A DNA stretch of 62,116 bases, counting the filler, from Asterionella formosa (lineage: Eukaryota), in NCBI GenBank assembly GCA_002256025.1. It is 5 parts of 5 records of this genome, joined end to end, with 100 filler letters (N's around TTAATTAATTAA, not from the genome) between each part and the next. Parts side by side here need not be neighbours in the genome. Positions count along the whole stretch, not along the records: positions 12,457 to 24,804 come from NKIB01007595.1; 4 more parts are not named here. One strand, given 5' to 3'. The first letter of the stretch is position 1; every line of letters begins with the position of its first letter. The notes under the pieces are model-generated. The model worked only from the letters and a program-made list of their open reading frames with translations, ran no database searches and had not been told where the DNA came from. Positions 3,880 to 49,149 of the stretch are shown piece after piece. The position numbers and the translations under genes were made by a program.

Positions 3880-4830
3880 ATGAAGGAGATCTCTCGCGCA
3901 CTCGCATTGACGGTGTTCATGACATTGGGTTTGACCAGTTACTCCTTTGCTCCGTCATCGAAACGAACCTCCTTGTCGCGATCAATTCAGTTTGTTAACC
4001 CTCGGAGGCAACTCAAGACTTCACTAAATATGGGCTTGGATCTTGTCACGTATCTTAGACTTGAATGGATTTCGGCAGCTTTATGTACAAACCAGACTCC
4101 TCGATCCGCTGACGTGTGTCTACAACTTGGAACTGAAGACGGTCGCGCAGTGACCTTCATTCCGAGAACGATTCGGGAGCTCATCACTTCATCCGCAGAG
4201 AAAGATGGAAAATTAACAGTGACTGCCCGTAGACAGCTCAAACAACAGGCAGATCGTCGACAAGCTGCGATTGTAAAATATTGTGATCAACCTGCGGACG
4301 ATTTGAAAGAAGTGCCAGATGAGAGTGTTGATGTTGTCATTTCGATGCAAGCTGCAGCTAGAATGATGGAAAATGGACAAGATTGGAAAAAGAGTGTCCG
4401 CGAGTCTGCTCGTGTGTTGAAGCCTGGCGGTAGATTGCTCTTCGTGGAGCAAACTGAACTAAATGGAGAAAGTTATGGCGACTACCTCAATAATCTGTAC
4501 ACTGCGGTTGAAGCTCCCCCTGGCGAAACCAAGGCTGTTACAGTTGACGACGAACCGGTTATCGGCGAAGAAGATCTTGAGTACTACCCGGTTTTTGAAG
4601 AGCTAAGTTTCGATAATTGTGATTTGGTGTTGACTCCTCATATTGCTGGTGTTGCCATGAAGTCTCAGGATGCGGCGTTGACTGCAGAGGAGCGACTTAA
4701 GAGGGACAAGCAAGACGAAGAAGATCGTATTGCTGATTTGTCACTCACAGCTTTTGAACGCGGACTGAAGAAACGACGAAGAAAGAAGAAGAAGGTGCAG
4801 AAAGTTGAAGGGGAAGTTAGCAAAAAATGA
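3880..4830 (+). CDS. Plastid-targeted class I SAM-dependent methyltransferase-like protein (type 11-like)
   Basis: 316-aa ORF with signal peptide and SYS-FAP motif. Contains VPDESVDVVIS and ARVLKPGGRLLFVEQ motifs. Motif I is degenerate (LQLGTEDG). Confidence 0.8.
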   Translation: MKEISRALALTVFMTLGLTSYSFAPSSKRTSLSRSIQFVNPRRQLKTSLNMGLDLVTYLRLEWISAALCTNQTPRSADVCLQLGTEDGRAVTFIPRTIRELITSSAEKDGKLTVTARRQLKQQADRRQAAIVKYCDQPADDLKEVPDESVDVVISMQAAARMMENGQDWKKSVRESARVLKPGGRLLFVEQTELNGESYGDYLNNLYTAVEAPPGETKAVTVDDEPVIGEEDLEYYPVFEELSFDNCDLVLTPHIAGVAMKSQDAALTAEERLKRDKQDEEDRIADLSLTAFERGLKKRRRKKKKVQKVEGEVSKK

Positions 4831-7192: not shown

Positions 7193-7290
7193 CCAATGCC
7201 AATGTACCTATATAAGTTTATGGATGCTGAACATAAAGTGCAAACCATGTCAAGATATCGTAACTACCTTACTATTGCAGCGCTTGTTAT

Positions 7291-8360
7291 TCAAAGCTCG
7301 TCTCCAGCTTCACCTCTGACACCATACACTGCATTTTCTACCCAGAGAGGTAGATCGAATGCGCTTTGCTGAAGCTTTGCCTGATAATAGGTTGTGCCTC
7401 CTCTAATTTGTTGAATGGTTTCCCAACGTTTTGTCACTTCATCCATTGTTGCAGCGACTAAGGGATTCTTTTCACAAAGCAAAAACCCAATCTGGCCAGT
7501 TGTATAAGAGCTTACCATCAATGATCCATACCGTGCCTGTCCAAATCCCACTCTAAGTATTTGTTCACGCCAGTTCTTAATTCCGACGAGATCAGAAGGA
7601 ATGTTGAAGCTTTCGGACTAATGCAGTGACACGACATGAGACAACAAGACTTCTACTTCACATATCCCAATCAATCCCTATAACAACCACGTACCTGAAA
7701 GTTGAAAATACCATTATCAGTGAGAATGCGATAAATGTTTTGAAAATGATGTTCAGCATAAAGTACACTGGAGGGAAGCTTGATCTGTCTTCCTGATTCG
7801 TCCCAGGTCCAAGGATCGGAAGAATCCTGAATAATAACATCGTAGAAACCGGTGGAAGCCAGCGAAACGAATGCAGCCCCATCGCCAATATGCAGAGTCA
7901 CTCTAGGGTCACTCCAAGCTGCACCCCATGAAAAGTGCTCCTTGCATATTTCTATGACATCGTTGTCTAAATCAACATGATCCACGTGTTCGAGACTCTG
8001 ATGCTTCAAGACTTCGCTCAGTACATATCCATCGCCGCCTCCGATCACCAAAGCTCGCTTCGGTTGCCCATGCTGCATCATTGCCACGTGTGCCATCATT
8101 TCATTGTACGAATTTGCATCTCGCTCCGTCAATTGCACAACTCCATCCAATACAAGTATCTTTCCATAGTATTTCGACTCGTGTACTTCTATCTTCTGAT
8201 ACTTGGATATCGTTGTAGTCAAGGGTGACTTGTCTGTCACTGTAATGGACTGGTAGAAGCCAGTTTCTTCTTCCCATGCACCAATTGACTTGTTAGCAAT
8301 CACAACAGTAACTGAGCGCACTAGCAGGAAGACAACAGCGGAGAAAACAACGTGAACCAT
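7291..8360 (-). CDS. Spermidine synthase-like aminopropyltransferase with N-terminal signal peptide (2 exons, ~330 aa)
   Basis: Exon 1 8360-7695, intron 7694-7618 (GTACGT..TAG), exon 2 7617-7291 in frame. Motifs SKYQKI, LVLDGVVQLTERD, YNEMMAH, LVIGGGDG, YDVIIQDSSDP, YTTGQIGF. Confidence 0.92.
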
Positions 8361-8472
8361 AGTAAGCGGTGACAAGCGGAAATGCGGAAATGCGGAAATG
8401 AGCCGCCAAAGAAGAATCACGCGTGACGATGTTTGTTCGGCTTACATCAATTGTAATGTGCATACCGGTATT

Positions 8473-8970
8473 TGTTGAAATGGTCCGTACTCCTTCCCTC
8501 GAGCTGAGTCTCTCTCCACGTAGACCTTTACGTGCTCGTAGTACTACCTAGCACCACTTACTTTCTTTCTTGTCTCTGCTTTCTAGCCTTCCTGCTAGAT
8601 AGCCTAATTGACCTTCCTGTCAATTAACACACTGTTTCCTTGGTTGATAATCTAAACTCAAATTAAATTATAAGCTAAACTAAATATTTCCTCTCCATGC
8701 ATCTTTGCTTGGCCTGCAAAGTTGTTCTAAGACTCTCTTTGAGTTTCCACTTGACATTTCCATAGAAATCTTCAAATCTTTGATCTTGTTAGACAGCTGA
8801 TTGACATGGCAATGCAATATTTGACTCGTTTGATTACAATCAAGTCCACAATCCTTGTGACTTGGGCTAATATTCTTGACATCCTCCCCATTGCCATGCT
8901 CAAGAGGCTGTAACATCTTTCCACTCTGAACTGGTTCTGACAATGTTGTGTGAATCTGTTCCTTCACATT
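8473..8970 (-). mobile_element. 3' fragment of a Ty1/Copia element: pol end, polypurine tract and 409-bp 3' LTR
   Basis: On the minus strand, TGGGGAGGA (PPT, 8890-8882) directly precedes TGTCAAG at 8881, and the LTR ends TTTCAACA at 8473. Homologous to the solo LTR at 30619-30998. Confidence 0.75.
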
Positions 8971-12356: not shown

Positions 12357-12456
12357 NNNNNNNNNNNNNNNNNNNNNNNNNNNNNNNNNNNNNNNNNNNN
12401 TTAATTAATTAANNNNNNNNNNNNNNNNNNNNNNNNNNNNNNNNNNNNNNNNNNNN
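12357..12456. other. Artificial contig-joining spacer (also at 24805-24904, 37244-37343, 49683-49782)
   Basis: Identical 100-nt N44-TTAATTAATTAA-N44 blocks separate segments of steadily non-increasing length (~12.3 kb). Confidence 0.97.
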
Positions 12457-13147
12457 AATCACCCGAAATGCTTTCTACAAACTGTCCACCAATCCCTTGA
12501 ATACCATATGAACCCGCTTTATCCATGGGTTCCTGGGTGGCAATGTAGTTCAGGATATCATCTTCCCGGAGTGAGGCAAAAGTGACTTGAGCCGTGTCCA
12601 CAAATGAATCAACCAGTGTGTAAGTAGTTCCAACTACATGATAGAGGGCTACAGCAGTATGTACTTGGTGTGACTTTGACGAAAGTGATTCAAGCATCGA
12701 CTTTGCAGAAGCCTCATCAATGGGCTTTTCGAGAATCATCCCATCCAAATCGACAATCGTGTCACTCCCCAGCACTAGCGTGGAAGTTGTGCTGGCATCA
12801 TCCGAAAGTTGAAGTGCCAGAGCTTTGCTCTTTTCTTGGGCCAGTCGAAGAGTATATTCCTGAGGGGTTATGTCGGTGGATTGTGCCAATCGAATTTGCA
12901 GCGCAGTTTCATCAAGCGGAGAGGGTTGTGCAGTATAGAGACCAGCCAACCCCATCATGTCAAGAATTTCTCTTCGTCGAGGAGATTGGCTGGCAAGAAT
13001 GAGCTTGACTCCATGGTTGAACTTGTCTCGGGAAGACAGAATGAGGGACATGCTCATCGCACTTGTCCGACGGAAACTTGGTTTTCGTTTGGATAGTAAC
13101 GAATTTGCGACCGAGAGGCAACAAAAGACGACGAAAAGATTTCTCAT
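12457..13147 (-). CDS. Maf family nucleoside triphosphate pyrophosphatase (YhdE-like), 3'-truncated by the contig end
   Basis: Motifs LILASQSPRRREIL, LGSDTIV, ILEKP, HQVHTAV, DKAGSYGIQG. N-terminus MRNLFVVFCCLSVANS resembles a signal peptide. Confidence 0.9.
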
Positions 13148-14193: not shown

Positions 14194-14976
14194 GTTTATT
14201 TGACATGCATTCGCTGAGAGAGTTGTGATATTCAGCAAGTGATGTACCAATTCGCCGTTTACCTGTCGGAGACAAAATGCTGTTACTGACATTACTGCAT
14301 GTGTCGATATATTTATTGAATTAACTGATGTTGAAGTGCGCCAGTTTTGAATTGTTTCATCGTCATTGGATATTTGTACTCATTCTTTCTTTGAACGTCT
14401 GTTGCCTTCCACATAGCCCCTTTTGGTCAGTGACGTTTCATGCGAGATAATACAAAGGTGAGCCATCAAACGTTGATGCCAAATTTCACGGCAAGGAAGA
14501 TAACCACTGATCGAGAGTCATACATATGCTATGGTCGATATCAATTTCAAAGTTCTCTGAGTCGCATCGTAAGCCTGTGAATTGCTTATATTACATTCAC
14601 AATCCTCTCACACAATCCATGTTTAAGGTACGATCTCCAACTGCCCCCCCCTCCCCCCCCCCAGTGACCATGAATACTTACTTCACCAACTGGTGTTTTG
14701 ATTTCGCTACGGGGGGAAATGAATTCAGTCGGTGCGCGGAAAGTTCAAAAACCATGATTACGATTTATATTAAGTTGTTTGACACCTAAGCATCACTAAC
14801 ATATTTGGGAATTTTCATCATAGATTGGCTGGGTCATTTTATTAGTGAAACTCATTCTGCGTATCCAGTCCTCAGCGAAATAATTGGAACCCAAGTGCTG
14901 GCAGAGATGCTGGCATCAGCTACTTGAAAGCTTGACTTAAATAAGTTACACGATCATTTCATTATCGCCTTTTTTT

Positions 14977-17427
14977 TCATTCTTGTTGTGCGCTTCCTTG
15001 CAGTTGTTGGAGGCGACCCATAACTTCGTTGATTTCACTTATTGTGTTGTAGTGAGCGAGAGACAACCTTACTATGGAACCAAAATTGAGCTCGTCTTGC
15101 AGCTGTTCTGTGCTTAAAAAAGTACCCGATCGACACTGGATTCCCATTTCATAAAAAGATGCAACTATTTCCGATGCCTGGAGTGCCTTGTGAGAAAAGG
15201 CGAAAAGCGGCAGTCGACAAGATTCTGATGAATCCTCGATGACACGAATGTATTGATTCGCTTTTAGTCGCTTTCGCAAACTTTCTACCAGCTGTTTCTC
15301 TGCCGTATGGATATGCTGATAAGCAGAAATAACTTGCATCGTCGATAGCTTATCTTGAAGGGCAGAATGATGTCCTTCCGAGGAATTCTTTTCGAAGGCA
15401 GCCAAATGCTGAAAGTAGGCCCCAAGCCCGACAACTCCAGAACAAGCCTCGTAATTGAGTGTTCCACTCTCGAACCACCCATAATGATTCTCACCTGTTT
15501 CCTGTAGTTTTTTAACAGCATCGATTCGACCGCACAATGCTCCAAGATGCGGCCCAAAGAGTTTGTGACAAGAAATAGTATACCAATCCACAGCTTCATT
15601 ATTTTCCAGATTGGCAAACGTATGAGGTGCAGCGGCAACACCGTCCACAACAATGATAGAATGGGGAATGATTTCTTTTATCCTCTTCGAAATGGTATGG
15701 ATGTCACGAACTTGACCAAGGATGTTGCTGGCATGAGATATGGCAACAATTCGAGTTTTAGATGTCACAACATCATCTATTGGACTACCAAGCCGCCACC
15801 ACTTAATCGTAGCTCCGGTTTTTTTCGCTAAGCAGGTCCATGCCGTCACATTCGCTAAATGATTTTCCGTGGCAAGCAAAATCTCGTCATGAGGTTGAAG
15901 TTTGTCCATGTATTTGTTTGCTAACGTCTCCAAAAGTACTGTAGCATTCAGGCCTAGAAATACCTTGTGCAATGCAGCGGAAGTTCCAAGCAATGTCAGC
16001 AATGTAGCTCGTGCTTCTTCCTTAATTCGACTTCCAATCACACACCGATTTCTGTCTTTCAAACTATCAACAACTCGTTCAATGACTTGCCTGGGTACTT
16101 GAGATCCTCCCGCATTTTCGAAAAATATTTGTTCCGACGGGAAGTAAGGGAAATGAGATCTGACAAAGGGAACGAAAAATGAATCTGGGGAGTCCTCCTT
16201 GGCAAGCTTTCGCTCGAAAATTGCCCATCTAATCTTGTTAAGTATAACAGCCTTGGAAGGCAGAATATTCCATGAAAAGTAATTTTGGTCTTGGTACACA
16301 CATTTCCACCCTCCCAATTTTGGCGAAGCTCCAATAACTCTCGGAAGTACCCACAAGCTGATCAAGTCTGAAATAACTGCGTTGTGCAGGTTTTCAGCAT
16401 GTGGCAACCCTGTCGCTGTATCTTGTGACGGGGGAGCATTTACTTCTAACAAATATGCCACAGGCTGGTGGTCTCGTTCACTCAAAATGAAATCAATCCC
16501 AAGATATTCAAAGCCTCCATTGACGTCGCCGCCTCGAAGATACGGAAAAGCCTTTTCGGCCAGAGTTGCCACTGATGCTGCCACGGAAGGAAAAAACTTG
16601 GATAAGTCGACAGTGGCATCATCAAAATTTGTTGAAATCAAGCTTGCCGTTATTTCTCCGGCAAACTTGTCAGGGTCATGCGAGTTGGCGCAACAATTGG
16701 TTATGTGCACAGCGTGTTCATTGAGGGATGACGTTGTCTGAAAGGGTTCATTGGCAACATGCAAGAAGCACTTGTCGTGAAGGAAGGCTCTGCCATCGCA
16801 AGTAAAGAGTCCATACACACGCACATGGCACTTGCGTCCACCAAAAAGTACCATCGGCCAAGTGTACTTTTGAGCAATGTAACGGTGGTTGTCCACGAGA
16901 GGCGACAGTTTGGTAGTCTCAAACTCGGAATGATTTTCCTCGCCGACGACCCAAATTCCCCCCGCACCGTTCGAACTAGCGTCTTTTATTACCCATAGAT
17001 TGTTTGGTGCAGGAAATGCAGTTGTTGGTTGTGGATCCAGCACCAAGTCTGGTAAACTAGAATACTCTTGAGTGGTCTCAAAGTGAGGACAATGGCAATG
17101 CTCTTTCCAAAATTTGTCAAATCCGCGTCGGCCTCTAAAACAATATGTTTCTAGTGTTGCCAACGCTCCGTGTTGAGGGACCCGACACATGAATCTCGCC
17201 AATGCCCATTTGCTGTCCAACACGTCTGTGCCATTCGGAAGGTGCGAATAGCAGCGGACTCCATCTCGCTTGTCCTTGGTTTCGTGACGAGGTGCATTTT
17301 CCCAAAGAAGTGAGGGAGGCGTCATGGTATTGCAAGCTCTGGAAGTAACATCCTCCCAGTCGGTGGGAAGAAGTGGCGATATTCTGCTGTGAGCTGCGCA
17401 GCCAGTCACTGAAAACGATATTGTCAT
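14977..17427 (-). CDS. Fusion of a tubulin-tyrosine-ligase-family ATP-grasp domain and a PLP-dependent class V aminotransferase/cysteine desulfurase-like domain
   Basis: Single 816-aa intronless ORF. N-half: WVIK..SNGAGGI, IAQKY, GRKCHVRVY, HITN, GIDFIL, LLEVNAPP. C-half: FENAGGSQVP, ENHLANV, VDGVAAAPH, SCHKLFGPHLG, ESGTLNYE, VRLSLAHYNT. Confidence 0.88.
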   Translation of the reverse strand: MTISFSVTGCAAHSRISPLLPTDWEDVTSRACNTMTPPSLLWENAPRHETKDKRDGVRCYSHLPNGTDVLDSKWALARFMCRVPQHGALATLETYCFRGRRGFDKFWKEHCHCPHFETTQEYSSLPDLVLDPQPTTAFPAPNNLWVIKDASSNGAGGIWVVGEENHSEFETTKLSPLVDNHRYIAQKYTWPMVLFGGRKCHVRVYGLFTCDGRAFLHDKCFLHVANEPFQTTSSLNEHAVHITNCCANSHDPDKFAGEITASLISTNFDDATVDLSKFFPSVAASVATLAEKAFPYLRGGDVNGGFEYLGIDFILSERDHQPVAYLLEVNAPPSQDTATGLPHAENLHNAVISDLISLWVLPRVIGASPKLGGWKCVYQDQNYFSWNILPSKAVILNKIRWAIFERKLAKEDSPDSFFVPFVRSHFPYFPSEQIFFENAGGSQVPRQVIERVVDSLKDRNRCVIGSRIKEEARATLLTLLGTSAALHKVFLGLNATVLLETLANKYMDKLQPHDEILLATENHLANVTAWTCLAKKTGATIKWWRLGSPIDDVVTSKTRIVAISHASNILGQVRDIHTISKRIKEIIPHSIIVVDGVAAAPHTFANLENNEAVDWYTISCHKLFGPHLGALCGRIDAVKKLQETGENHYGWFESGTLNYEACSGVVGLGAYFQHLAAFEKNSSEGHHSALQDKLSTMQVISAYQHIHTAEKQLVESLRKRLKANQYIRVIEDSSESCRLPLFAFSHKALQASEIVASFYEMGIQCRSGTFLSTEQLQDELNFGSIVRLSLAHYNTISEINEVMGRLQQLQGSAQQE

Positions 17428-18363
17428 TTTGCTTCCTCGGTTAGATTTTGTGGGGGGAATTGCGTTGCTTGATAATTGATGGGTTACTTCGAACCAACCG
17501 CACTGTCAACCTGGCTACCGGTACCGGTACAGGTTGGAGTGACAAGAAAACGGCAGGACGACAGGAGAACCGGCANNNNNNNNNNNNNNNNNNNNNNNNN
17601 NNNNNNNNNNNNNNNNNNNNNNNNNNNNNNNNNNNNNNNNNNNNNNNNNNNNNNNNNNNNNNNNNNNNNNNNNNNNNNNNNNNNNNNNNNNNNNNNNNNN
17701 NNNNNNNNNNNNNNNNNNNNNNNNNNNNNNNNNNNNNNNNNNNNNNNNNNNNNNNNNNNNNNNNNNNNNNNNNNNNNNNNNNNNNNNNNNNNNNNNNNNN
17801 NNNNNNNNNNNNNNNNNNNNNNNNNNNNNNNNNNNNNNNNNNNNNNNNNNNNNNNNNNNNNNNNNNNNNNNNNNNNNNNNNNNNNNNNNNNNNNNNNNNN
17901 NNNNNNNNNNNNNNNNNNNNNNNNNNNNNNNNNNNNNNNNNNNNNNNNNNNNNNNNNNNNNNNNNNNNNNNNNNNNNNNNNNNNNNNNNNNNNNNNNNNN
18001 NNNNNNNNNNNNNNNNNNNNNNNNNNNNNNNNNNNNNNNNNNNNNNNNNNNNNNNNNNNNNNNNNNNNNNNNNNNNNNNNNNNNNNNNNNNNNNNNNNNN
18101 NNNNNNNNNNNNNNNNNNNNNNNNNNNNNNNNNNNNNNNNNNNNNNNNNNNNNNNNNNNNNNNGAGCAAAAATGGCCTCCCCTATAGCCACATACATAGA
18201 ATGGTACATTTCCTGTACTGCATCCACATCCATAAAACAAATGATGCATGAATAATAGGCAGTCCAATTTTGTTTCGCCTCCTCATACCTATATAATATT
18301 TCGGCACCTGCCTTTAGTAAATGGTAGTCAATACGCTACTCATCATCACGTCCTCAGGTGACC

Positions 18364-20784
18364 ATGTCAGCCCTCAGCTTTCGTTCCATCCTGCCTCATG
18401 AACCTCCGCCAGAAGAAAATCACGGATATCTTCAAATTCAGGGTTTGCTGGAACCCAAACAGGACGACGAATGGACCAAGGCAGGACTGACATTGGCACT
18501 GGGAGACGCGGTTCAATCGATTTCAAATGGACAATATTCAGTTCAACAAGTGCATTTGTTGGAGGACGTTCCCCCCTTTACCAAAATGAGAATAACTGTC
18601 CAATCACCCCAGATAGCACTTAGTTTATTACAACACTTTCGACAATTACACCTATCACCAGCTATTCTCTTTGCCAACAAGGAATTATCCGCAAGACATT
18701 TGCAGCTCACTCCCATCACTACAAAGCCCATGTTGTCTACTGACATTTGCTGGACGCGATCGAGTCCTCCCAAGTTCAGAAGACTCGTTGTGCCTACAAG
18801 TACCATCAGGATGGAATCGCTGGAGCAACAGCGACAGAACACTAGATTTCTGTTCATGACCGGACTGCTGATCGACGAGCAAATTACTCCAGAAGAGTGG
18901 ACATGCACCACAGCGATGCAATGCATCCGGGCCATACTTCATCCATTCGAATCGTCGAACCATGGCGTTGAAATATTCTGTCCCCCCAAACAAGTTGTAC
19001 GTCATGTCTACATAGGTATGAGGTCCGCTCGAGATGCACAAACTGTGGTAGCGATCCTGCAGGGGAAGGTAGTTCAGTGGGAGGGAACAAAACTAGTATC
19101 TGGCAAACTGTTCTTTGATTATTGTGACATGACAGACAAATCGCAAGCAAGATCGAGACGAACTCTTGGAGAAACTATCGAACGCGGACAACCATCAAGG
19201 CCGGATTGCACGTCGTCGACGGACCACATTGTTATACCTGGATTACATCTCCTTGAAGACTTTGTGTCTGTAGAGGAACAACAGGTACTAATGGCAGTTA
19301 TATTGGGACCACAAGCATGTTGGGCAAAACCACAAGCGACACAGTCACATAATGGGGCTGTCGTCCGACGGCGTGTTCAACATTATGGGTACATTTTTGA
19401 CTACGAAACTGCAGATATTCTCCGTGATGTTGACTTGACGCCATGCCCACCGTTGCCTGCTATTGAGAATGGTTCTGTACTGGACGAATATATTGGAAAT
19501 TGCACGAACAACAAGGAGGGTTGGGGTGTTCTGGCTGGTGTGTTGGAACGAACACGACAAAAAGATATCGACGGAACCACATACAGTACGATCAATCAGC
19601 TGACAATAAATGAATACAAGCCTGGAGATGGGATTGGCTCTCACATTGATACCATTTCCGCATTTGGAGATGGCTTGTTTTCTCTTTCATTGCACAGCGG
19701 AATTGTCATGGAATTCAAAAAAGGCGACGAAAAGAAGCTTGTCTTTCTTCCACCTCGGTCCCTGCTTGCCATGACTGGCCCTGCTCGATGTGAATGGGAG
19801 CATATGATTGTCACAAGACGAACAGACACGTACAATGGAGAAGTCATACCAAGGGATTTGAGAGTAAGCTTAACGCTAAGGACAGCCTTGGATCTTAATG
19901 GATGTCCTATGCCGCGGCGGGAAACATCCTTATTTCCTCTTGTCGTTCAAGCACACAACTCAATATCCTCACTTGCTACACCTGATACGGAACGAGAATT
20001 CGTGCACAAAGTTTATGATGCAATTGCGACGCAGTGGCATCATACAAGAGGCAAGCGAGGTGTTCTTTGGCCTGGTGCGACTCTCTTCCTCCAGGAATTG
20101 CCAATGGGATCCATCGTTGCCGACGTGGGTTGTGGCGATGGAAAGTACTTTCCAGCCATTTGGGAGAATGGATCATATGTCATTGGCTTCGATATCAGTC
20201 GCCCATTACTCAAAACATCCTTTGGAGCCTCCGCGAACGATCCTCCGGAGAGTCGACGCATTAGCGAATTTCGGAATCATTTGCGAGACAGACCAGCAGT
20301 TGGCGTTGCTGATTGTATGAATGTCCCACTCAAGTCTAAATCATGCGATGCAGCTATTTGTATCGCTGTAATGCATCATTTGAGCACTGAAGAACGACGA
20401 ATACTGTGTCTGAAGGAACTAGTCAGAATAGTCAAAGCAGGTGGGATGATTAATGTTCAAGCCTGGGCCATGGATCAAGACGACGGAAGTCGCCATCGGT
20501 TTGACGCAGCAGACGTCTTCGTGCCTTTCAATGCGCAACCTAAATATTTGGACAAGTCCAATTCCGACGAGGTATCGAACAAGAGCGTCGCTGAACAATA
20601 CGCTGATGCTTACGATGGTGCTGAGTTTGACGAGAAAAAAGGTTTGGTGATCTTTCAACGATATTGTCATTTATATCGTAGTGGAGAGTTGGAAACCTTG
20701 GTCAAGAGACTTGATGGTGTTGAAATTGCTGATTGTGGATTTGAGAGTGGAAATTATTTCGTCATTCTACGAGTTACCGAATAA
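18364..20784 (+). CDS. ALKBH8: ALKBH8/Trm9-type tRNA wobble-uridine modification enzyme (RRM-like + AlkB + SAM methyltransferase)
   Basis: AlkB part: RRRVQHYGYIFDY, NQLTINEYKPGDGIGSHID, WEH, RVSLTLR. Trm9-like part: EREFVHKVYDAIA, VADVGCGDGKY, CIAVMHHLST, RYCHLY. Confidence 0.9.
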   Translation: MSALSFRSILPHEPPPEENHGYLQIQGLLEPKQDDEWTKAGLTLALGDAVQSISNGQYSVQQVHLLEDVPPFTKMRITVQSPQIALSLLQHFRQLHLSPAILFANKELSARHLQLTPITTKPMLSTDICWTRSSPPKFRRLVVPTSTIRMESLEQQRQNTRFLFMTGLLIDEQITPEEWTCTTAMQCIRAILHPFESSNHGVEIFCPPKQVVRHVYIGMRSARDAQTVVAILQGKVVQWEGTKLVSGKLFFDYCDMTDKSQARSRRTLGETIERGQPSRPDCTSSTDHIVIPGLHLLEDFVSVEEQQVLMAVILGPQACWAKPQATQSHNGAVVRRRVQHYGYIFDYETADILRDVDLTPCPPLPAIENGSVLDEYIGNCTNNKEGWGVLAGVLERTRQKDIDGTTYSTINQLTINEYKPGDGIGSHIDTISAFGDGLFSLSLHSGIVMEFKKGDEKKLVFLPPRSLLAMTGPARCEWEHMIVTRRTDTYNGEVIPRDLRVSLTLRTALDLNGCPMPRRETSLFPLVVQAHNSISSLATPDTEREFVHKVYDAIATQWHHTRGKRGVLWPGATLFLQELPMGSIVADVGCGDGKYFPAIWENGSYVIGFDISRPLLKTSFGASANDPPESRRISEFRNHLRDRPAVGVADCMNVPLKSKSCDAAICIAVMHHLSTEERRILCLKELVRIVKAGGMINVQAWAMDQDDGSRHRFDAADVFVPFNAQPKYLDKSNSDEVSNKSVAEQYADAYDGAEFDEKKGLVIFQRYCHLYRSGELETLVKRLDGVEIADCGFESGNYFVILRVTE

Positions 20785-28327: not shown

Positions 28328-30319
28328 TCAACCCCTTGTAATTAAATGCGGAGCCGCTTTTTCCAACCCCCGCAGTACTTGGGGGTCATGGTGCATCCCA
28401 AGATCTTTACAAATTGCATAAGCAATTTCAATATCCTCTTTCTTGGCTGACTTGGGTGCCGACAGAAAGAAAAAAGAAAATGTATGTGGCGTAGGTTTCA
28501 CTTCCTTGATGATGCGTTGCAACATGTTAGTTGCAATGTGAAAAGCCCTCTCTCGGGTCTCCGTCTTGTAGGGCTTTCGATTGGAAAACGCACAGGCTGC
28601 CATAACTTCATTCATGGTTCGAACTGTGGGTTCAATTGACGAGGCTTCCATTTCTGTATGCAAGTTCCATGCTTCTTGCGCCTTGTGTTTCGAACTCGAA
28701 GATGAGATACATTTAAGTAGGGTACAGTATGTAATCATATTGACACCAATTGATTCCTTCATCTGGCGAAAGAGAGAGAAAGCCTTTTTTGTGGAATAGC
28801 GGTGCTTACTCATGGCCCATGCATTAATTACAGTATTGTACGTCCATTGATCAGGTTTACATGAAACATCTGCTGATCTTTGCATTTCCTTAAGTAGATT
28901 TTCTGCCTTATCTGGGGCACCAACTTGGCGACTGTTGGCCCATGCAGATATCACTGCATTGTAGCTTGTAGCATTTGGCTGGCATTCGCTGGATACTTTC
29001 ATCATTTCGAGGTATGATTCTGCTTTTTCTGCTGCTCCTTCGAGTCGAATGTTGGCCCAGACACTAATCAACGCATTCAATGTAACAGTATTCGGCTTGA
29101 TCGCAATATCCGTCTGTAACTCCAGCATCCTTTGAAATAACTCTTCGGCATGCATGACTGCATTTGGATCTTGGCTCTTGGCCCATCCTGATATAACTAT
29201 ACTAAACGAAAAATTGTCCGGTGTGGCCAATGCCTTCCAAAATTTGGATTCATCGCAGAACTTCTTGAGCATTGCATCTGCTTCTTCCACTCTATTGTTA
29301 ACCACCAATGCTTGAAACATGGTATTATAAACATTTGTATCAGGATACACGTTTTCTTTGCCTGACTTTACTTTGTCTTGTAGTCTCGCCAACAGTGCCT
29401 TAGCTCGGTCCACGGCCTCGGTTCGACCACTTTTAGTCCACGCGGTTATGACCGTACTATATGATATTTTGTCAGGAAATAGATGTAGGGATTCCATTTC
29501 CGTTAAGAGAGCTTCAGCATGCTCAGGAGCGTCCCGGGATTGACTCTTGGCCCATGCATCCATGACAGCATTGTATGTCACTGTCGAGGGAAGGCAAGCC
29601 AGTCTATCAGCTGCTCGAATTTCCTGCATGCTTCGCAATACTCGCTCTGCGAACGCAGGTGATTCTCCCTGCCTTACAGCTCCACTTATGAGCAAATTGT
29701 AGGAGATATTGTCAGGATATAGCTTTGGGAGTTGAATTCTATATTTGGCTAATTTGCAAACGACGTCCTGTGCAGTGATCCCCATTGGGAGGTGGCTCCA
29801 ACTCCCCAGAACATGCCTCAATTGATCCTTCGTCAAAATCTGACCTGCTTCATTGCTTCGAGTGCCTTCCTCTTCGGCTAGTCTATCAAAAAGTTTCCAA
29901 GCCATCTCTGTGTCATGATCTGATAGCGTCCAGCTATCCAGGATACTTAGCGCCAGCTCCCAATCGGTGGGACTGAATGATCCCAAATCGGACCGAAGGA
30001 GATCATTCGTTTCTTGCAACAGTTTTTCTTTCTCGGGCCCTCCTGCGGAATATAACTGTCTTCGAGATTCTCCTATGGATTCCGTTGTGCGAGCGAAATT
30101 CAGATCGTCCTGATTGCTGCTGCTGCTGCTGGTGTCCTTGCCAGCAGATTTTACGTTAGCACTAGAATGCGCATCCGATGTACCGCTAATTCCTTGTGTA
30201 CTATTCGTAACATCACTATGTATACCGCATCGATGGCCAATCCGAAGCAATGCGAGTGAAGGTTTGATAGATGAGGCCTTCCGAGAAAGGGTTGAGGTTG
30301 CTAGGCGCAACATAGTCAT
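28328..30319 (-). CDS. Pentatricopeptide repeat (PPR) protein, probably mitochondrial
   Basis: Repeated P[DS]xxxYNxVIxAWAKS-type units. Arg/Ser-rich N-terminus. ATG at 30319. Confidence 0.92.
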   Translation of the reverse strand: MTMLRLATSTLSRKASSIKPSLALLRIGHRCGIHSDVTNSTQGISGTSDAHSSANVKSAGKDTSSSSSNQDDLNFARTTESIGESRRQLYSAGGPEKEKLLQETNDLLRSDLGSFSPTDWELALSILDSWTLSDHDTEMAWKLFDRLAEEEGTRSNEAGQILTKDQLRHVLGSWSHLPMGITAQDVVCKLAKYRIQLPKLYPDNISYNLLISGAVRQGESPAFAERVLRSMQEIRAADRLACLPSTVTYNAVMDAWAKSQSRDAPEHAEALLTEMESLHLFPDKISYSTVITAWTKSGRTEAVDRAKALLARLQDKVKSGKENVYPDTNVYNTMFQALVVNNRVEEADAMLKKFCDESKFWKALATPDNFSFSIVISGWAKSQDPNAVMHAEELFQRMLELQTDIAIKPNTVTLNALISVWANIRLEGAAEKAESYLEMMKVSSECQPNATSYNAVISAWANSRQVGAPDKAENLLKEMQRSADVSCKPDQWTYNTVINAWAMSKHRYSTKKAFSLFRQMKESIGVNMITYCTLLKCISSSSSKHKAQEAWNLHTEMEASSIEPTVRTMNEVMAACAFSNRKPYKTETRERAFHIATNMLQRIIKEVKPTPHTFSFFFLSAPKSAKKEDIEIAYAICKDLGMHHDPQVLRGLEKAAPHLITRG

Positions 30320-44850: not shown

Positions 44851-47800
44851 TTAGGTTTTGAATGATACTGGTAGAGGAATAAAATCATCGGCCTTTTTTT
44901 GCTGGCTAAAACACGAAGAACACAGTTCCTCTCCCCAGTGACTTGCTTCGGCGATTTCTTCTGGGATTGATATCTCTGCTATTCGCTGAGCCCTAAGGGT
45001 TGGAGGAATACGACCCGAATGATGCCGTTCACCGACCCTTCGGACACGGTGCCAACGGACATCCTCAATGGTTTCCTGACAAGTCGAACAAATAGGAATT
45101 AACCCTGGAGCATCGTCATGGTGGAGATGGTGCAACAATATTGACGTGCTGAATTTTGCCCGTCGAAGGGTATCGAACTCCAGGTTGCGAAACTGCGAGA
45201 ACTCTAACAACGCATGACGTGCATCAGCCAAGTGAGAAACAACTTCTGGCGTACTGTCTTGGTTTTTTGAATGGAAGGAAGCGACGTATGAATCGAAATG
45301 ATTGGCCTTGATTTCTTCCTGGTCGGTGGGAATAGCCTTGGCCGTCAGGGAACATGTGAAGAAGCTTGTTCGCAATCGCCTCACCGATGACCCCACTTCT
45401 CGTCCAAGCCAAGATTGACGACGCCGTTTTTGTGGCGGTTCATCCACAGTCGCTTCAGCAGGCCATTTCTTCCGTTTTCCATTTTTCTTTGAATTCACAG
45501 AGCCCTTTGGTGGATTTGGATTTCGCTTGTCCAAAAGCCAGACATCGTCTCCGACCATCCTCTGATGGATGGCATCTGGTCCGCCGGTTAGAAATTCCAG
45601 TTTTTTCTCTGGCAGCATACTCGTCCAGACACTTGATGGAGAAGACAATGGGGATCGCTTGCATCCGCTATTTGGGAGTTGAGTTAAAGGAATGTCAACA
45701 TGCAATTGAGGTGCAGCAAGTAATTCGAGATTTGGTGATTTCAGAGGGGTGGACATCAAGGGCGCTACATCCACATCTGAAATTACTGTTGCCACGAATG
45801 TCGTTGGGTTCGTAACCGAAATGGTACTGTCGCTTGTAGTTTTCATTTCTGCGATTTCAGTACTAGTTGCAAGGGGTTTAATGGATACCAATTTCTCTGT
45901 AGTGAATTCTATTCTGACATCCAAGCTCATACTTGCTTCGTTAAAACGAATCCATTTGTGCTCGCTTTCCTTACAATCTTGAAAACCATCGATCTTCCAT
46001 GTTCGCGTCAAATCATCCAACGCACTGAAGAAAAACTCTTGCATTTCTACTGCAAAATCATGGATGGAATGACCCTTCGGGTTGTACTTCATAGCGTTGA
46101 GAAAGACTAGTAAAACGTCAGAAACAACATCTTTCAGTTTTTCGAATTCTCCAAGGAAGCATCGCGAATACACAGTGCCGAGATCCATTGGATGTAAGAT
46201 AATCTTATGATAGTCCTTCAGTTTCAAAGCAGCTGCATTGACAGGCTTCCGGAATGGGGCAGCAGAATCATGGGCCATTACAGTGTCTCTCAAAAGTGCA
46301 GCAACCTGCAGAGCAGGGCATCTTCTTTGATCCTCTACGATGGCAGACGACAGAGCTTCTTTACCTGTCGATTTGCTCTTAAGGAATCGACTGATATTAG
46401 CAGCATGCAATCTGACAGCTTCCTCGATCCAAAAATCACCATCGAGAAGCGGAGGGCAAATCAAAAGACCACCAAGGACACCTTCTTGATGTAATTCTGG
46501 TCCATCCTTCTTCGGCTCGTCGTCATCAGTGTCGGTTCCTTGGGACTTCATGAAATCATGGAAAGAAGATTCAAACATGCTCTGAACGTCCGTAACGACT
46601 CCAGCCTCGACAGCCCGGCTAAGCACTCCGTGATACCAGGATACAAGTCGGTCTTTGTTTGGAGTTCGTTGCGATGCTGGATGGTTCCAGAACACAAAAG
46701 AGTTGCCACGGGAAGGAGGACAGGCCCAGATGTGAACAGTCTCATAACCACGAGCCCTGGCAGTCGCAAGATATGCCACCAAAATTTCGTGGAAAACATC
46801 TGTGCGACAGACGCGAGGCCGAAAATGCTCAACCGAATCCAAGTACGCAATGTAAACTCTTTTCTTTTGTAGACCTCGATCAGCACCTTCACTGTACACG
46901 TCATCGCAGTCATACTCTTGTACATACACACAAAAGATACAAACGTCGAGGCCATCAATCTTTTGAAATAACATGATGGCCTTGGAGTTGTAGCGGACAA
47001 TCGTTGGTGGCATCACTCCATTTTCCAAGTTATCGGCTTCGGCTTGCATACGAAAGTGCTTTCGCACAACCTCAGGAACTTTAAAGAACTTGCTGCAATC
47101 CGAGATTATTCGTACAGTTATAGTCTTACCTGCATTGGGATAATCAGGAGTGTCCATGCGGCTGCGAACCTTTTCTTCAATAAAAGAAGAAATTGTTGTT
47201 TCAGGGAGGTCCTCTGATCTGAACGGGGACCTCTCCTGACTGCCAAGTACTTCGGACAATTTTACTGGAATGTCAGTTCCGCTCAAAAACGAGTACAACT
47301 CATCCCTTTTCAATTTCTTCAAAACTTGAACGGACATCTTTTGAGGAGACTCATTCTTAGTGTGAAAACAAGTGGGGCAAGTGTAGTAGGGGTCAGAGTT
47401 AGTGAACTCGTTAAACATTGCGCAAATCTTGTGGATACCCTCCTTGCACGTCACACACGTCAACCAATGCTCTGCGACTTCCTCGTCATTCTTTCTCTTA
47501 AGTAAATCACGCTTGTAGCGGACAGCGGTACCCATTGATTCGAACTGGTCACTGGTGTGAGGAAGAACAGCTTGCAAATTGGAGTAGCAACGCTGACAGA
47601 ATTGGCGACTGCCGTCCTTGGCAATGTAGTAGATCGCCCCCTTCCGGATCTTGGCACCACTGCAGTTTGCTCCAGTGCAAATGAGCAAAGCTGGTTCGTG
47701 AGAAAGACATCCTTGATTGCACATAGCGCAAGAACGACCCAAACAGGAACGGCAGGTATGCTTGGCGTGCTTTGCGGCGATGTTCATCGCTCGCTTCAAT

Positions 47801-49149
47801 GCTTTTTCAGTGCCTTGAGGTCCAGGATCCACCCACTGGTGATGCTCTACTTGGGGTAGGGAACCTAGACAATCTGAGCCGGAAGCATTGGCTGTTGAGG
47901 CAGAGACTAAAGGACAAATGTCGATAGATGGAGACAGCTCTAAAATGGAACTGGGCAACAAACTCATAGAGGCATCCGAATGAAATAAGGAAGGCTGTTC
48001 TGCAATGCAGGATAATCCCATGTTCGTCTGATCCAGTGATTTCTGGGCTACTTTAAGTTCAGCTTCAGCGACCTTGTCAGTATCAATATTGAGTTTTGTA
48101 GCGGATGGATATGTACTGGAAGGAGCCGACGACTCAAACTCACTTGGTGTCAAGTCGGCAGTCTCCGATGGAGAAACAGTTGGATTCTGTGCATTTCCCA
48201 TTGGAGTCACGTAGGGTTGTGCAGTCACGACAAGCTCTGTGGAGGCTTTTGGGTAGCAAGGCGTTGACTTTAAACTTGCAAGGGGAGTCACAGGGTTTGC
48301 AACCCGGCTGACTGCTTCGCGAGTGCGACAATCAGGAGTTGACAACTTCACCGAAGCCATTCGACGACGGGGTGGAAGTGGCAAAGGCAACTGAATGGAG
48401 ACAGATGTTGGCTTTTCTTGAACTTGAGTAGAAAGAGTGGCATTCGTTGCTTGTATGATTTCGTATTGCTCATTGAACAGTGTCAAGAGTGCCCTCGCAG
48501 AGATATGTACAGTATTGTCAGGCGGGTTGAAAGTCATTGCGTTTTCAAAGACAAGGCGAACGTCCGCTGCGAATTCGTCTCGACTGTTGTACGCAACCGC
48601 GTGAAGCCGAGCCTTGATAGTTCCCAAGTCCATTGGTTTGGTAATAATGGTCTTGTAGTCGTCGAGTCCCAGTCCTTTGACATCGACAGGAAAATTGAAT
48701 AGTCCGCGACGATTATGCAGTGGGTTGGTCATGAGTCTCGCAACAAGTTGGCGAAGAGGGAAGAGCTCTGACTCCAATCTGAGTGAACGTAGATGAGTGG
48801 ATAGCAGGGTAGCGTCATGAAGAGGATTGCGCAGAGTTGGTACAACCTTCTCAGCTTCCATTTCAACAACAGACGGGGGTTTGGTTTCAATCTCTTGCAC
48901 GTCGGAATCGTCGTCTTCACCGGCGCTGCTAATGTATTGAGATTCTTGAGATACGAGTCTTGCCATGGGGGCTCGAGGCCGCTTGCGCATGGGAGCCACT
49001 TCACTGTCCGAGCATTCTTCGCCGACTTGAGGCAATTCAGTGACAGTCCGGAGCGGCGTCTGGTCAGGAAGATTTGTAGCGGCCTCTTTAGTCTCCAGGT
49101 CAGACTCTCGGCGAGACAATATCTCCTCAGAAAACGAGCCAGCAGTCAT
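44851..49149 (-). CDS. CBP/p300-like histone acetyltransferase with two bromodomains, RING/PHD-like region and C-terminal ZZ-like Cys cluster
   Basis: Intronless ORF of ~1430 aa. Bromodomains: PMDLGTIK..NAMTFNPP and PMDLGTV..NAMKYNPK. HAT: LFQKIDGLDV, RVYIAYLDSVEHFRP, HIWACPP, GDFW, EFDTLRRAKFST. Confidence 0.92.
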   Translation of the reverse strand: MTAGSFSEEILSRRESDLETKEAATNLPDQTPLRTVTELPQVGEECSDSEVAPMRKRPRAPMARLVSQESQYISSAGEDDDSDVQEIETKPPSVVEMEAEKVVPTLRNPLHDATLLSTHLRSLRLESELFPLRQLVARLMTNPLHNRRGLFNFPVDVKGLGLDDYKTIITKPMDLGTIKARLHAVAYNSRDEFAADVRLVFENAMTFNPPDNTVHISARALLTLFNEQYEIIQATNATLSTQVQEKPTSVSIQLPLPLPPRRRMASVKLSTPDCRTREAVSRVANPVTPLASLKSTPCYPKASTELVVTAQPYVTPMGNAQNPTVSPSETADLTPSEFESSAPSSTYPSATKLNIDTDKVAEAELKVAQKSLDQTNMGLSCIAEQPSLFHSDASMSLLPSSILELSPSIDICPLVSASTANASGSDCLGSLPQVEHHQWVDPGPQGTEKALKRAMNIAAKHAKHTCRSCLGRSCAMCNQGCLSHEPALLICTGANCSGAKIRKGAIYYIAKDGSRQFCQRCYSNLQAVLPHTSDQFESMGTAVRYKRDLLKRKNDEEVAEHWLTCVTCKEGIHKICAMFNEFTNSDPYYTCPTCFHTKNESPQKMSVQVLKKLKRDELYSFLSGTDIPVKLSEVLGSQERSPFRSEDLPETTISSFIEEKVRSRMDTPDYPNAGKTITVRIISDCSKFFKVPEVVRKHFRMQAEADNLENGVMPPTIVRYNSKAIMLFQKIDGLDVCIFCVYVQEYDCDDVYSEGADRGLQKKRVYIAYLDSVEHFRPRVCRTDVFHEILVAYLATARARGYETVHIWACPPSRGNSFVFWNHPASQRTPNKDRLVSWYHGVLSRAVEAGVVTDVQSMFESSFHDFMKSQGTDTDDDEPKKDGPELHQEGVLGGLLICPPLLDGDFWIEEAVRLHAANISRFLKSKSTGKEALSSAIVEDQRRCPALQVAALLRDTVMAHDSAAPFRKPVNAAALKLKDYHKIILHPMDLGTVYSRCFLGEFEKLKDVVSDVLLVFLNAMKYNPKGHSIHDFAVEMQEFFFSALDDLTRTWKIDGFQDCKESEHKWIRFNEASMSLDVRIEFTTEKLVSIKPLATSTEIAEMKTTSDSTISVTNPTTFVATVISDVDVAPLMSTPLKSPNLELLAAPQLHVDIPLTQLPNSGCKRSPLSSPSSVWTSMLPEKKLEFLTGGPDAIHQRMVGDDVWLLDKRNPNPPKGSVNSKKNGKRKKWPAEATVDEPPQKRRRQSWLGREVGSSVRRLRTSFFTCSLTAKAIPTDQEEIKANHFDSYVASFHSKNQDSTPEVVSHLADARHALLEFSQFRNLEFDTLRRAKFSTSILLHHLHHDDAPGLIPICSTCQETIEDVRWHRVRRVGERHHSGRIPPTLRAQRIAEISIPEEIAEASHWGEELCSSCFSQQKKADDFIPLPVSFKT

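Follow-up and report, generated by a model that had tools for sequence, protein, structure and literature searches.

A diatom gene fusing a TTL-family ATP-grasp domain to a class-V PLP domain: a possible two-step enzyme of amino-acid chemistry

TTL, TTLL6 and TTLL7 are ligases of one Pfam family with an ATP-grasp core, and all three act on tubulin. Yeast Pby1 carries a C-terminal ATP-grasp domain of the same type (PDB 6y3z, 6y3p), described as a likely ATP-dependent ligase; its N-terminal domain is described as resembling the SurE phosphatase family, and the protein as binding the decapping enzyme Dcp2 (PMC7293026). Among the class-V PLP enzymes, SufS and CsdA represent the group-II cysteine desulfurases. 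UstD and KpbH, fungal decarboxylative aldolase/Mannich enzymes of secondary-metabolite clusters, are reported to decarboxylate aspartate to an enamine nucleophile (PMC13741828), and FGM3, from the fusaoctaxin pathway of Fusarium graminearum, is reported in one paper to be a retro-aldolase that cleaves 4-hydroxyarginine (10.1101/2023.03.21.533663). All three stand alone, FGM3 as a protein of 408 aa and UstD and KpbH without a ligase domain. Literature term searches found no characterised protein, and no paper, with a TTL-family ligase fused to a class-V PLP enzyme, in keeping with the preliminary description of the locus treated here, whose author knew of none.

Diatoms, which contribute heavily to primary production in the oceans, have much lineage-specific metabolism without assigned genes. 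In Asterionella formosa, the window (the whole stretch of DNA that was analysed, 62,116 nucleotides) holds on its minus strand one intron-free coding sequence (14977..17427) that begins with an ATG and runs for 816 codons to a stop at 14977-14979, as given by the ORF listing and the translation. Its first 385 residues (16273..17427, minus strand) form a TTL-family ATP-grasp half, recognised by Pfam and by profile matches to the structures of Pby1, TTLL7, TTLL6 and TTL; the Pfam TTL match itself (PF03133) covers aa 134-362 (16342-17028, minus strand; E 1.2e-18, bit score 67.8, cut-off 20.1). A linker follows at aa 386-420 (16168..16272, minus strand), conserved over about aa 390-407 (PSKA..LNK.RW...ERK) and variable thereafter. 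The remainder, aa 421-816 (14980..16167, minus strand), is a class-V PLP half according to Pfam, NCBIfam, solved-chain and bacterial comparisons, with Aminotran_5 (PF00266) matching aa 434-694 (E 8.9e-43, bit score 147.1, cut-off 21.5). Both Pfam domains lie above their gathering cut-offs. The junction that had been proposed at 16160-16300 corresponds to aa 376-422, where conservation is lowest between the two domains. Translation, Pfam and RNA contigs agree with the preliminary description that a single uninterrupted 816-aa ORF joins a TTL-like to a class-V PLP domain, and the ligase-PLP fusion gene is confirmed.

RNA-library contigs, independent of one another and drawn from several studies, cover this coding sequence. 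One of 2815 nt (X1) spans 14700-17439 and one of 2857 nt (X2, polyA) spans 14700-17509, both without gaps or joints; they extend 47-75 nt past 14700 and end near the ends of the gene, giving a minimum single-contig extent of 14700..17509 on the minus strand. A further contig from a polyA transcriptome (X6, 890 nt) equals 15554-16443 and crosses the domain junction. No joint falls within the ORF in the four RNA-library runs compared, and single contigs run straight through 16160-16300. Two in-frame stops lie 5' of the ATG inside the stretch under RNA contigs, so M1 is the earliest possible start.

Could the fusion be an artefact of misassembly, or of read-through from two separate genes? The assembly is discontinuous nearby, a long run of N starting about 150 nt upstream of the ATG, which speaks for such an origin. 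Against it stand the end-to-end coverage by independent contigs and the homologues: 227 were found, and in all 120 of those listed PF03133 and PF00266 occur together, whereas the preliminary description had named absence of the fusion from all relatives as a mark of misassembly. Moreover, the short forms share 90% clusters with members of 824 and 886 aa. RNA contigs, fused homologues and shared clusters already refute an artefact, and we give it a negligible chance. Against a relative of 95-99% identity (X7), 24 coding differences are listed, 17 synonymous and 7 nonsynonymous; judging by these differences, the ORF is under purifying selection. The fused ORF is a genuine diatom gene that is expressed, and it may mark an undescribed piece of diatom amino-acid chemistry.

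Wherever a homologue names its organism, that organism is a diatom. Pennates and centrics both have the fusion, and so do Leptocylindrus and Corethron, which branch early among diatoms; no non-diatom organism is named among the homologues. Separate trees of the TTL and PLP halves have 11 of 32 splits in common, where 500 label shuffles gave 0.19 on average and 2 at most. The decay of one domain, which had been named as a reason for doubt, is not seen: K148, K199, R203, H241, N244, D312, E328 and N330 of the ligase half, and H523, N568, D595, H602, K622, T656, R766 and R787 of the PLP half, each persist in 137-143 of the 143 homologues of full length. Protein-atlas searches returned generic TTL and class-V clusters only, and viral contigs scanned with one TTL-only relative gave no match.

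The ligase half can be placed in the TTL family on its PF03133 score and its ATP-grasp residues, and it has the full set of TTL motifs, N-terminal, central and C-terminal. The motifs quoted for it were located in the translation as KCHVR (199-203), FLHVA (221-225), HITN (241-244), GIDF (310-313) and EVN (328-330). The last of these, E328-V329-N330 (16438..16446, minus strand), is the ExN motif of ATP-grasp enzymes, which belongs to the Mg/ATP site; in TTL and TTLL enzymes, the two lysines, the GxDF aspartate and the ExN glutamate and asparagine are the nucleotide and Mg residues. Among the 143 homologues, K148 is found in 137, K199 in 139, and D312, E328 and N330 in every one, and all five still count as invariant when TTL-only relatives are added.

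By profile comparison, the best solved match to this half is the C-terminal domain of Pby1 (E 4.5e-30), with TTL at about 3e-23 and TTL, TTLL6 and TTLL7 together at about 1e-23 to 1e-25; in sequence, the half is nearest to yeast Pby1 and not to tubulin TTL. The KFDIR motif of TTL reads KCHVR in the diatom, and K-x-H-x-R is its Pby1-type form. Pby1 and the diatom half have R-K-F-H-x-R, H-x-T-N, G-x-D-F and L-L-E-x-N in common, and in both proteins a TTL-type ligase is fused to an enzyme-like domain. However, the partner is SurE-like and N-terminal in Pby1, but Aminotran_5 and C-terminal in the diatom, where Pfam found no SurE domain in the 816-aa protein; orthology with Pby1 was rejected on these grounds. 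Nor does Pby1, which has no assigned substrate, offer a function to transfer, and the diatom ligase half sits in the one TTL-family branch that still lacks one.

Does the ligase half then modify proteins? It might add an amino acid to a protein C-terminus or a glutamate side chain, of tubulin or of another protein, with the PLP half supplying or editing that amino acid. The full set of TTL motifs suits such a role, and the solved ligase relatives are protein-directed or thought to be so, Pby1 through its binding to Dcp2 and TTLL6, TTLL7 and TTL through their action on tubulin. Yet the Pfam matches in the 816-aa protein include no module that binds microtubules or other proteins, and the similarity to TTL/TTLL is distant (profile E about 1e-23), no closer than that to Pby1; nothing in the sequence comparisons points to tubulin. 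We regard protein tagging as improbable. Were it true, a single polypeptide would make and attach a diatom-specific protein tag of a non-standard amino acid. The Seminavis genome paper gives a tubulin ligase as a pennate-signature tubulin modifier, which is not tied to the fusion gene.

The PLP half has the class-V aminotransferase fold, to judge from its PF00266 score together with its Lys/Asp/His set. K622 (15562..15564, minus strand), which aligns with the lysine in S-W-Y-K of FGM3 and UstD, lies in the quoted motif SCHK, located at 619-622, and is the Schiff-base lysine; D595 we take to be the aspartate to the pyridine nitrogen and H523 the stacking histidine. Each of the three is found in 143 of 143 homologues. 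The other quoted motif, RSGTFL, was located at 766-771, and this loop, R766-L771 (15115..15132, minus strand), aligns with UstD residues 388-393, which are named as active-site residues (PMC11976203). Its R766 is kept in 140 of the 143 homologues, F770 in 138 and L771 in 137. With the SufS cysteine placed by alignment to UstD and FGM3 and by the SufS motif, L771 occupies the position of the catalytic cysteine; no homologue among the 143 has a cysteine there, which bears out the preliminary description on this point.

The fold and the PLP-binding residues are those of SufS and CsdA, which match the PLP half at E 1e-22 to 1e-11, but all 18 NCBIfam models listed fall below their cut-offs (SufS at 135.6 against 475.1 bits, CsdA at 97.4 against 493.6). 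Because of the leucine at the SufS cysteine position and the desulfurase models below cut-off, the PLP half is, by its sequence, not a cysteine desulfurase. Public records carry the automatic name 'selenocysteine lyase/cysteine desulfurase', of which the desulfurase part is contradicted by the sequence. The resemblance to VC1184 noted earlier holds in that TIGR01976, of the VC1184 type, is the best NCBIfam model, but at 203.1 bits the match falls below the cut-off of 352.35; the protein therefore resembles that family without being a member, and the informative relatives include FGM3 and UstD.

These two head the 61 solved chains that match the PLP half, above SufS and CsdA: FGM3 (PDB 9x4u and related) at E 6.5e-39 over aa 414-807, and UstD (PDB 7mkv) at 9.9e-27. 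By sequence, the closest solved relatives are thus β-γ carbon-bond enzymes of the UstD/KpbH/FGM3 type, and the nearest characterised relatives are carbon-carbon bond enzymes valued by biocatalysis laboratories. FGM3 resembles the diatom half in its fold, its Lys/Asp/His/Arg set and its lack of the SufS cysteine, its loop reading R-W-G-H-F-F against R-S-G-T-F-L in the diatom. Its Schiff-base motif, however, is S-W-Y-K against S-C-H-K, and the retro-aldol reaction is reported for FGM3 itself. UstD shares the S-G-T of the loop with the diatom half.

The residue before the Schiff-base lysine separates the diatom clade from these relatives. It is histidine in 142 of 143 homologues, but tyrosine in FGM3, UstD and the bacterial TIGR01976 proteins, and Tyr-Lys is characteristic of the UstD/KpbH/FGM3 type. 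The SufS motif is S-G-H-K, with histidine before the lysine as in the diatom half. The bacterial TIGR01976 proteins, among which the literature search found no characterised member, are 27-34% identical over the whole PLP half and likewise lack the SufS cysteine; they carry S-x-Y-K, R-x-G-H-M-Y and a P-N-H-F-F motif that is absent from the diatom clade. In the tree, the diatom PLP halves form their own clade (SH-aLRT 100), set apart from 52 bacterial and other rows by a stem of 0.6 changes per column, and their function may have shifted along this long stem. In modelling of KpbH, Y231, which precedes the Schiff-base lysine, is described as lying near the side-chain carboxylate of aspartate (PMC13741828). 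Since histidine replaces this tyrosine in the diatoms, the aspartate chemistry may not transfer.

How might the two halves work together? A two-step enzyme, coupling β-carbon PLP chemistry on an amino acid to ATP-dependent amide ligation, is the reading we favour, at somewhat less than an even chance. It would be a cytosolic two-domain diatom enzyme with both halves catalytically competent, the location being suggested by the translation, in which no N-terminal signal-like hydrophobic stretch is seen by eye. The PLP half, SufS-like in fold but lacking the persulfide-forming cysteine, would bind an L-amino acid on PLP and remove or exchange a β-carbon group, with aspartate losing CO2, cysteine sulfinate SO2 or a γ-hydroxy amino acid an aldehyde. 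The intermediate would be an alanine enamine on PLP, as in UstD and KpbH and as the retro-aldol reaction of FGM3 implies. The Pby1/TTL-type half would activate a carboxylate as acyl phosphate and join it to an amino group, so that whatever amino acid the PLP half makes or trims would end up ligated to a carboxylate acceptor, which could be a small acid or the end of a peptide. The halves may well act in one pathway, since diatoms have passed them on jointly in a single polypeptide. We infer from the fusion alone that one half uses what the other produces, as in the 'make and ligate' scheme of the preliminary description, and a fusion by itself does not prove consecutive steps. Of that interpretation, the fusion stands as real and conserved, with its catalytic residues kept; its choice of relatives has been refined, with FGM3 and UstD added for the PLP half and Pby1 as the closest for the ligase half. 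The reaction, once worked out, could bring to light a metabolite or a protein modification of diatoms, and could for the first time open a functional way into the Pby1-type ligases and the large bacterial TIGR01976 family.

A bolder coupling can be drawn by analogy, in which the β-carbon of a PLP-bound enamine, derived from aspartate or cysteine sulfinate, would attack the acyl phosphate from the ATP-grasp half and yield a γ-oxo amino acid. Kynureninase, a class-V enzyme, cleaves the corresponding bond in such a compound, and UstD and KpbH use an aspartate-derived enamine as carbon nucleophile; a permanent fusion would also be well suited to passing on an intermediate as labile as an acyl phosphate. 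On the other hand, we know of no ATP-grasp enzyme that gives an acyl phosphate to a carbon nucleophile. Covariation between the halves, computed as mutual information with average-product correction on 143 sequences (effective number 116), is of low power and gives no sign of an inter-domain interface, with 2 of the 60 top pairs inter-domain, where such pairs make up a share of 0.45 among all column pairs, and with many of the top pairs in the gappy N-terminus. Such carbon-carbon ligation seems a long shot, although it would bring a new class of reaction to both enzyme families and give diatoms a route of their own to an undescribed metabolite.

The amide-ligating enzyme that we prefer also competes with another reading, in which the PLP half would be a cysteine-independent selenocysteine lyase or cysteine sulfinate desulfinase yielding alanine, and the TTL-like half an ATP-binding sensor or scaffold. 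Without the cysteine, SufS-type enzymes still act as lyases on selenocysteine and cysteine sulfinate, and the automatic name in the source annotation points the same way. The ligase half, however, is unlike a domain that has lost catalysis, because conservation is higher there than in the PLP half (mean identity to the query 0.55 against 0.45; 80 of 385 columns invariant among 35 homologues against 43 of 396) and because it keeps ExN, D312 and the lysines. The bacterial homologues bear on this reading and on the preferred one. In their neighbourhoods, 80 loci in all, a cysteine dioxygenase gene lies directly 3' of the homologue in 4, which agrees with a wider family that has cysteine sulfinate among its substrates, and one paper describes 'cysteine desulfurase-like' genes, together with isochorismatase-like and ABC ATPase genes, as adjoining orphan selD (PMC5029168). 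On balance we hold a lyase with a non-catalytic partner to be unlikely. A C-S lyase of diatom ovothiol synthesis was also considered and set aside, the literature retrieved on it concerning bacterial OvoB and offering no link.

No single family of neighbours turns up at over 5 of the 80 bacterial loci. The Pfam scan took in 111 of the 148 nearest neighbours, 37 proteins below 150 or above 720 aa being dropped, and the one ATP-grasp protein among them is a biotin carboxylase. Since the neighbours are not conserved and this is the only ATP-grasp protein, the ligase-PLP partnership is not one of long and general standing, and these loci give it no bacterial precedent. Isochorismatases and ABC ATPases each account for 3 of the 111 scanned neighbours, and at two loci (L027 and L072) the isochorismatase gene is convergent with the PLP gene.

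The fusion gene is a single uninterrupted open reading frame of 816 codons (14977-17427, minus strand; ORF listing and translation), with a well-defined start, because two in-frame stops lie close upstream of its ATG. Translation confirmed that it joins a TTL-like to a class-V PLP domain, as the preliminary description had claimed, both scoring above the curated Pfam cut-offs (TTL, PF03133, residues 134-362, E 1.2e-18; Aminotran_5, PF00266, from residue 434, E 8.9e-43). The motifs KCHVR, FLHVA, HITN, GIDF, EVN, SCHK and RSGTFL are each found where they had been placed.

Could two genes have been read as one? Of 12 sequencing runs listed by a run search, 10 contain part of the stretch and 7 at least half of the sampled words; nine are recorded as RNA, from seven studies, and four runs were aligned in detail. 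Single contigs from a cDNA metatranscriptome (X1, 2815 nt over 14700-17439) and a polyA metatranscriptome (X2, 2857 nt over 14700-17509) align without gaps, differ at 3-5 letters and extend 47-75 nt past 14700, while an 890-nt contig from a polyA transcriptome (X6, 15554-16443) spans the domain junction. No joint is reported in any of the four aligned runs; the gene is therefore intronless, and nothing points to a pair of messages. RNA-library contigs may include DNA; against that, both long contigs stop near the gene ends and the depth of X1 drops from 86.8 to 6.6 just upstream of the gene. In a relative 95-99% identical (X7), the 24 listed coding differences divide into 17 synonymous and 7 nonsynonymous, a pattern of purifying selection; six further differences lie outside this listing. 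The two separate genes that the preliminary description had feared are not seen, since single contigs cross the junction. The ORF is a genuine gene, spanned by individual contigs from RNA libraries, and an artefact (misassembly or two genes read as one) is excluded.

A whole-protein search scored 7998 candidates and returned 227 proteins at E ≤ 1e-3, of which the best 120 all carry both PF03133 and PF00266 (120/120). The fusion is widespread in diatoms, so the absence from relatives expected of a misassembly does not hold. An organism is given for nine of these 120 rows (Fragilaria, Mayamaea, Amphora, Cylindrotheca, two Nitzschia, Seminavis, Cyclotella and Leptocylindrus), and further named relatives are Fistulifera solaris, Skeletonema dohrnii, S. 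marinoi, a Bacillariaceae bin, Corethron and Extubocellulus, together with a JGI model that we take to be Pseudo-nitzschia multiseries. All of these are diatoms, two of them confirmed as such in the taxonomy. No named non-diatom with the fusion was seen among the homologues bearing an organism name, and the fusion is likely diatom-specific, short of proof because most matches are nameless. Shorter single-domain matches are mostly fragments: representatives of 438 and 480 residues share 90% clusters with members of 824 and 886 residues, and two pairs of half-length calls, each pair from contigs of equal size (15987 and 101213 bases), are read as single genes that gene calling broke in two. With the ligase half as query, an exhaustive HMMER search of 1.84 billion representatives gave 506 matches at E ≤ 1e-3; below the fused family rank TTL-only proteins of about 340-530 residues (33-36% identity) from eukaryote-like metagenome and transcriptome records.

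Both halves appear to have travelled together. The separate domain phylogenies proposed earlier share 11 of 32 splits, far beyond 500 label shuffles (mean 0.19, maximum 2), with seven local conflicts of moderate support. In the PLP-half tree, 17 diatom proteins group as a single clade on a long stem (SH-aLRT 100), separate from 52 rows of bacterial and other origin, and no particular bacterial group is its sister; the ligase halves of fused proteins also group together, as a clade of 21 rows (SH-aLRT 99) distinct from TTL-only relatives. These trees argue for one old fusion with both halves retained. Decay of one domain, also considered in the preliminary description, was looked for and not seen: 16 presumed catalytic or cofactor residues are each retained in 137-143 of 143 full-length homologues, and neither domain is decaying. 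Across 35 aligned homologues, conservation is higher in the ligase half (mean identity to the query 0.55 vs 0.45; 80 vs 43 invariant columns).

For the ligase half, a profile built with its TTL-only relatives finds as best solved match yeast Pby1, in its C-terminal domain (E 4.5e-30), followed by the Kluyveromyces orthologue (1.6e-27), TTLL7 (4.3e-25), TTLL6 (1.3e-23) and TTL (about 3e-23), which puts Pby1 ahead of TTL/TTLL by a modest margin. The change from KFDIR to KCHVR is present as described and matches the Pby1-type motif form (R-K-F-H-I-R in Pby1). Pby1 is reported to pair an N-terminal SurE-phosphatase-family-like domain with the TTL-like ATP-grasp domain and to bind the decapping enzyme (PMC7293026); the diatom protein is therefore a second case of a Pby1-type ligase joined to another enzyme-like domain. 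A role in protein tagging, to be set beside the TTL-type matches on one side and the lack of any tie to tubulin found in this analysis on the other, seems unlikely. A Cys-Cys pair (residues 245-246, 16690-16695) inside the H-I-T-N-C-C-A-N-S motif is present in 143/143 homologues. A distant ligase-half relative, P0255 (eukprot, 1808 residues, E 1.2e-17), has a TTL domain and a weak match to the N-terminal domain of the E3 ligase listerin (24.7 bits, below the cut-off of 27), and may be another unusual TTL fusion.

None of the 18 NCBIfam models listed for the PLP half reaches its cut-off. The resemblance to the VC1184 type held in that TIGR01976 is the best model, but its score of 203 is under the cut-off of 352; the SufS model reaches 136 (cut-off 475). 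The missing SufS catalytic Cys was borne out: Leu771 occupies its position in 137 of 143 full-length homologues and Cys in none, so labelling it 'cysteine desulfurase' or 'selenocysteine lyase', as databases do, is unsupported as far as persulfide chemistry goes. C662 (15442-15444), within an E-A-C-x-G loop common to many bacterial relatives, is kept in 137/143. The closest solved structures are the fungal PLP enzymes FGM3 (E 6.5e-39) and UstD (9.9e-27), with all SufS and CsdA entries behind. The residue before the Schiff-base lysine is His in 142 of 143 diatom-clade homologues, as in SufS, whereas Tyr stands there in FGM3/UstD/KpbH-type enzymes and in bacterial TIGR01976 proteins. Modelling of KpbH places this Tyr next to the side-chain carboxylate of aspartate (PMC13741828), so the diatom PLP half may use a different substrate. 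Fgm3 reportedly performs a retro-aldol reaction on 4-hydroxy-arginine (GntC paper, 10.1101/2023.03.21.533663), UstD and KpbH are described as decarboxylating aspartate, the resulting PLP-stabilised enamine then attacking an aldehyde or imine (kaitocephalin paper, PMC13741828), and UstD residues 388-393, which align with R766-L771, form an active-site loop (PMC11976203).

What would such a protein do? It is a single polypeptide with two intact active sites, conserved together. The PLP half would bind an L-amino acid and expel or exchange its beta-carbon substituent via an alanine enamine; the ATP-grasp half would form an acyl phosphate, then an amide, ligating the amino acid from the PLP half in a consecutive step. 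We hold this coupling of PLP chemistry to ATP-dependent amide ligation tentatively, at slightly under even chances. An alternative in which the PLP half is a lyase independent of the cysteine, and the ligase domain acts like a sensor, is improbable. A carbon-carbon bond formed when the enamine carbon captures the acyl phosphate would recall the UstD and KpbH enamines and is very unlikely. A literature search, with subscription journals thinly covered, found no paper on this architecture, in line with the earlier statement that no characterised protein of this kind is known, and no characterised TIGR01976/VC1184 'cysteine desulfurase-like' member appears in the titles and abstract openings searched.

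Among 80 bacterial loci encoding PLP-half relatives, no neighbour family is shared by more than 5, and the Pfam scan of 111 of the 148 nearest neighbours (37 left out by size) found one biotin carboxylase as the only ATP-grasp protein; hence the joining of ligase to PLP enzyme seems to have arisen in the diatom line. Four of the 80 loci (L015, L018, L043 and L052, at about 7220-7820 each) have a same-strand cysteine dioxygenase type I gene directly 3' of the TIGR01976-type PLP gene, and fall among Armatimonadota-type rows in the PLP tree. This arrangement is consistent with a lineage-level substrate role for cysteine sulfinate, the sulfur analogue of aspartate, and these loci may encode a two-gene route from cysteine via cysteine sulfinate to alanine and sulfite. 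At another locus (L019) a MOSC_N + MOSC protein (7206-8744, minus strand) adjoins the PLP gene; in molybdenum cofactor sulfurases, MOSC domains are paired with NifS-like ones. A stand-alone TIGR01976-type protein of the bdelloid rotifer Adineta vaga (P0345, 415 residues) branches beside bacterial rows.

In the window, a run of 588 N (about 17.6-18.2 kb) begins ~150 nt upstream of the start codon and lies between the fusion gene and its divergent neighbour, so that their shared upstream region is unreadable; other parts of the window contain four pairs of 44-N runs. This neighbour (18364-20784, plus strand) is itself an uninterrupted 806-residue fusion ORF of 2OG-Fe(II) oxygenase (AlkB-type) and methyltransferase domains, which resembles the ALKBH8 tRNA-modifying architecture. 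A Maf-like protein (PF02545, E 9.8e-49; 12401-13147, minus strand) is broken near its C-terminus by a short N run. Three further ORFs encode a 316-residue methyltransferase (3880-4830, plus strand), a 663-residue PPR-repeat protein (28328-30319, minus strand) and a 1432-residue protein with bromodomains and a KAT11 histone acetyltransferase domain (44851-49149, minus strand). The long intron-free ORFs of the window fit a compact diatom genome.
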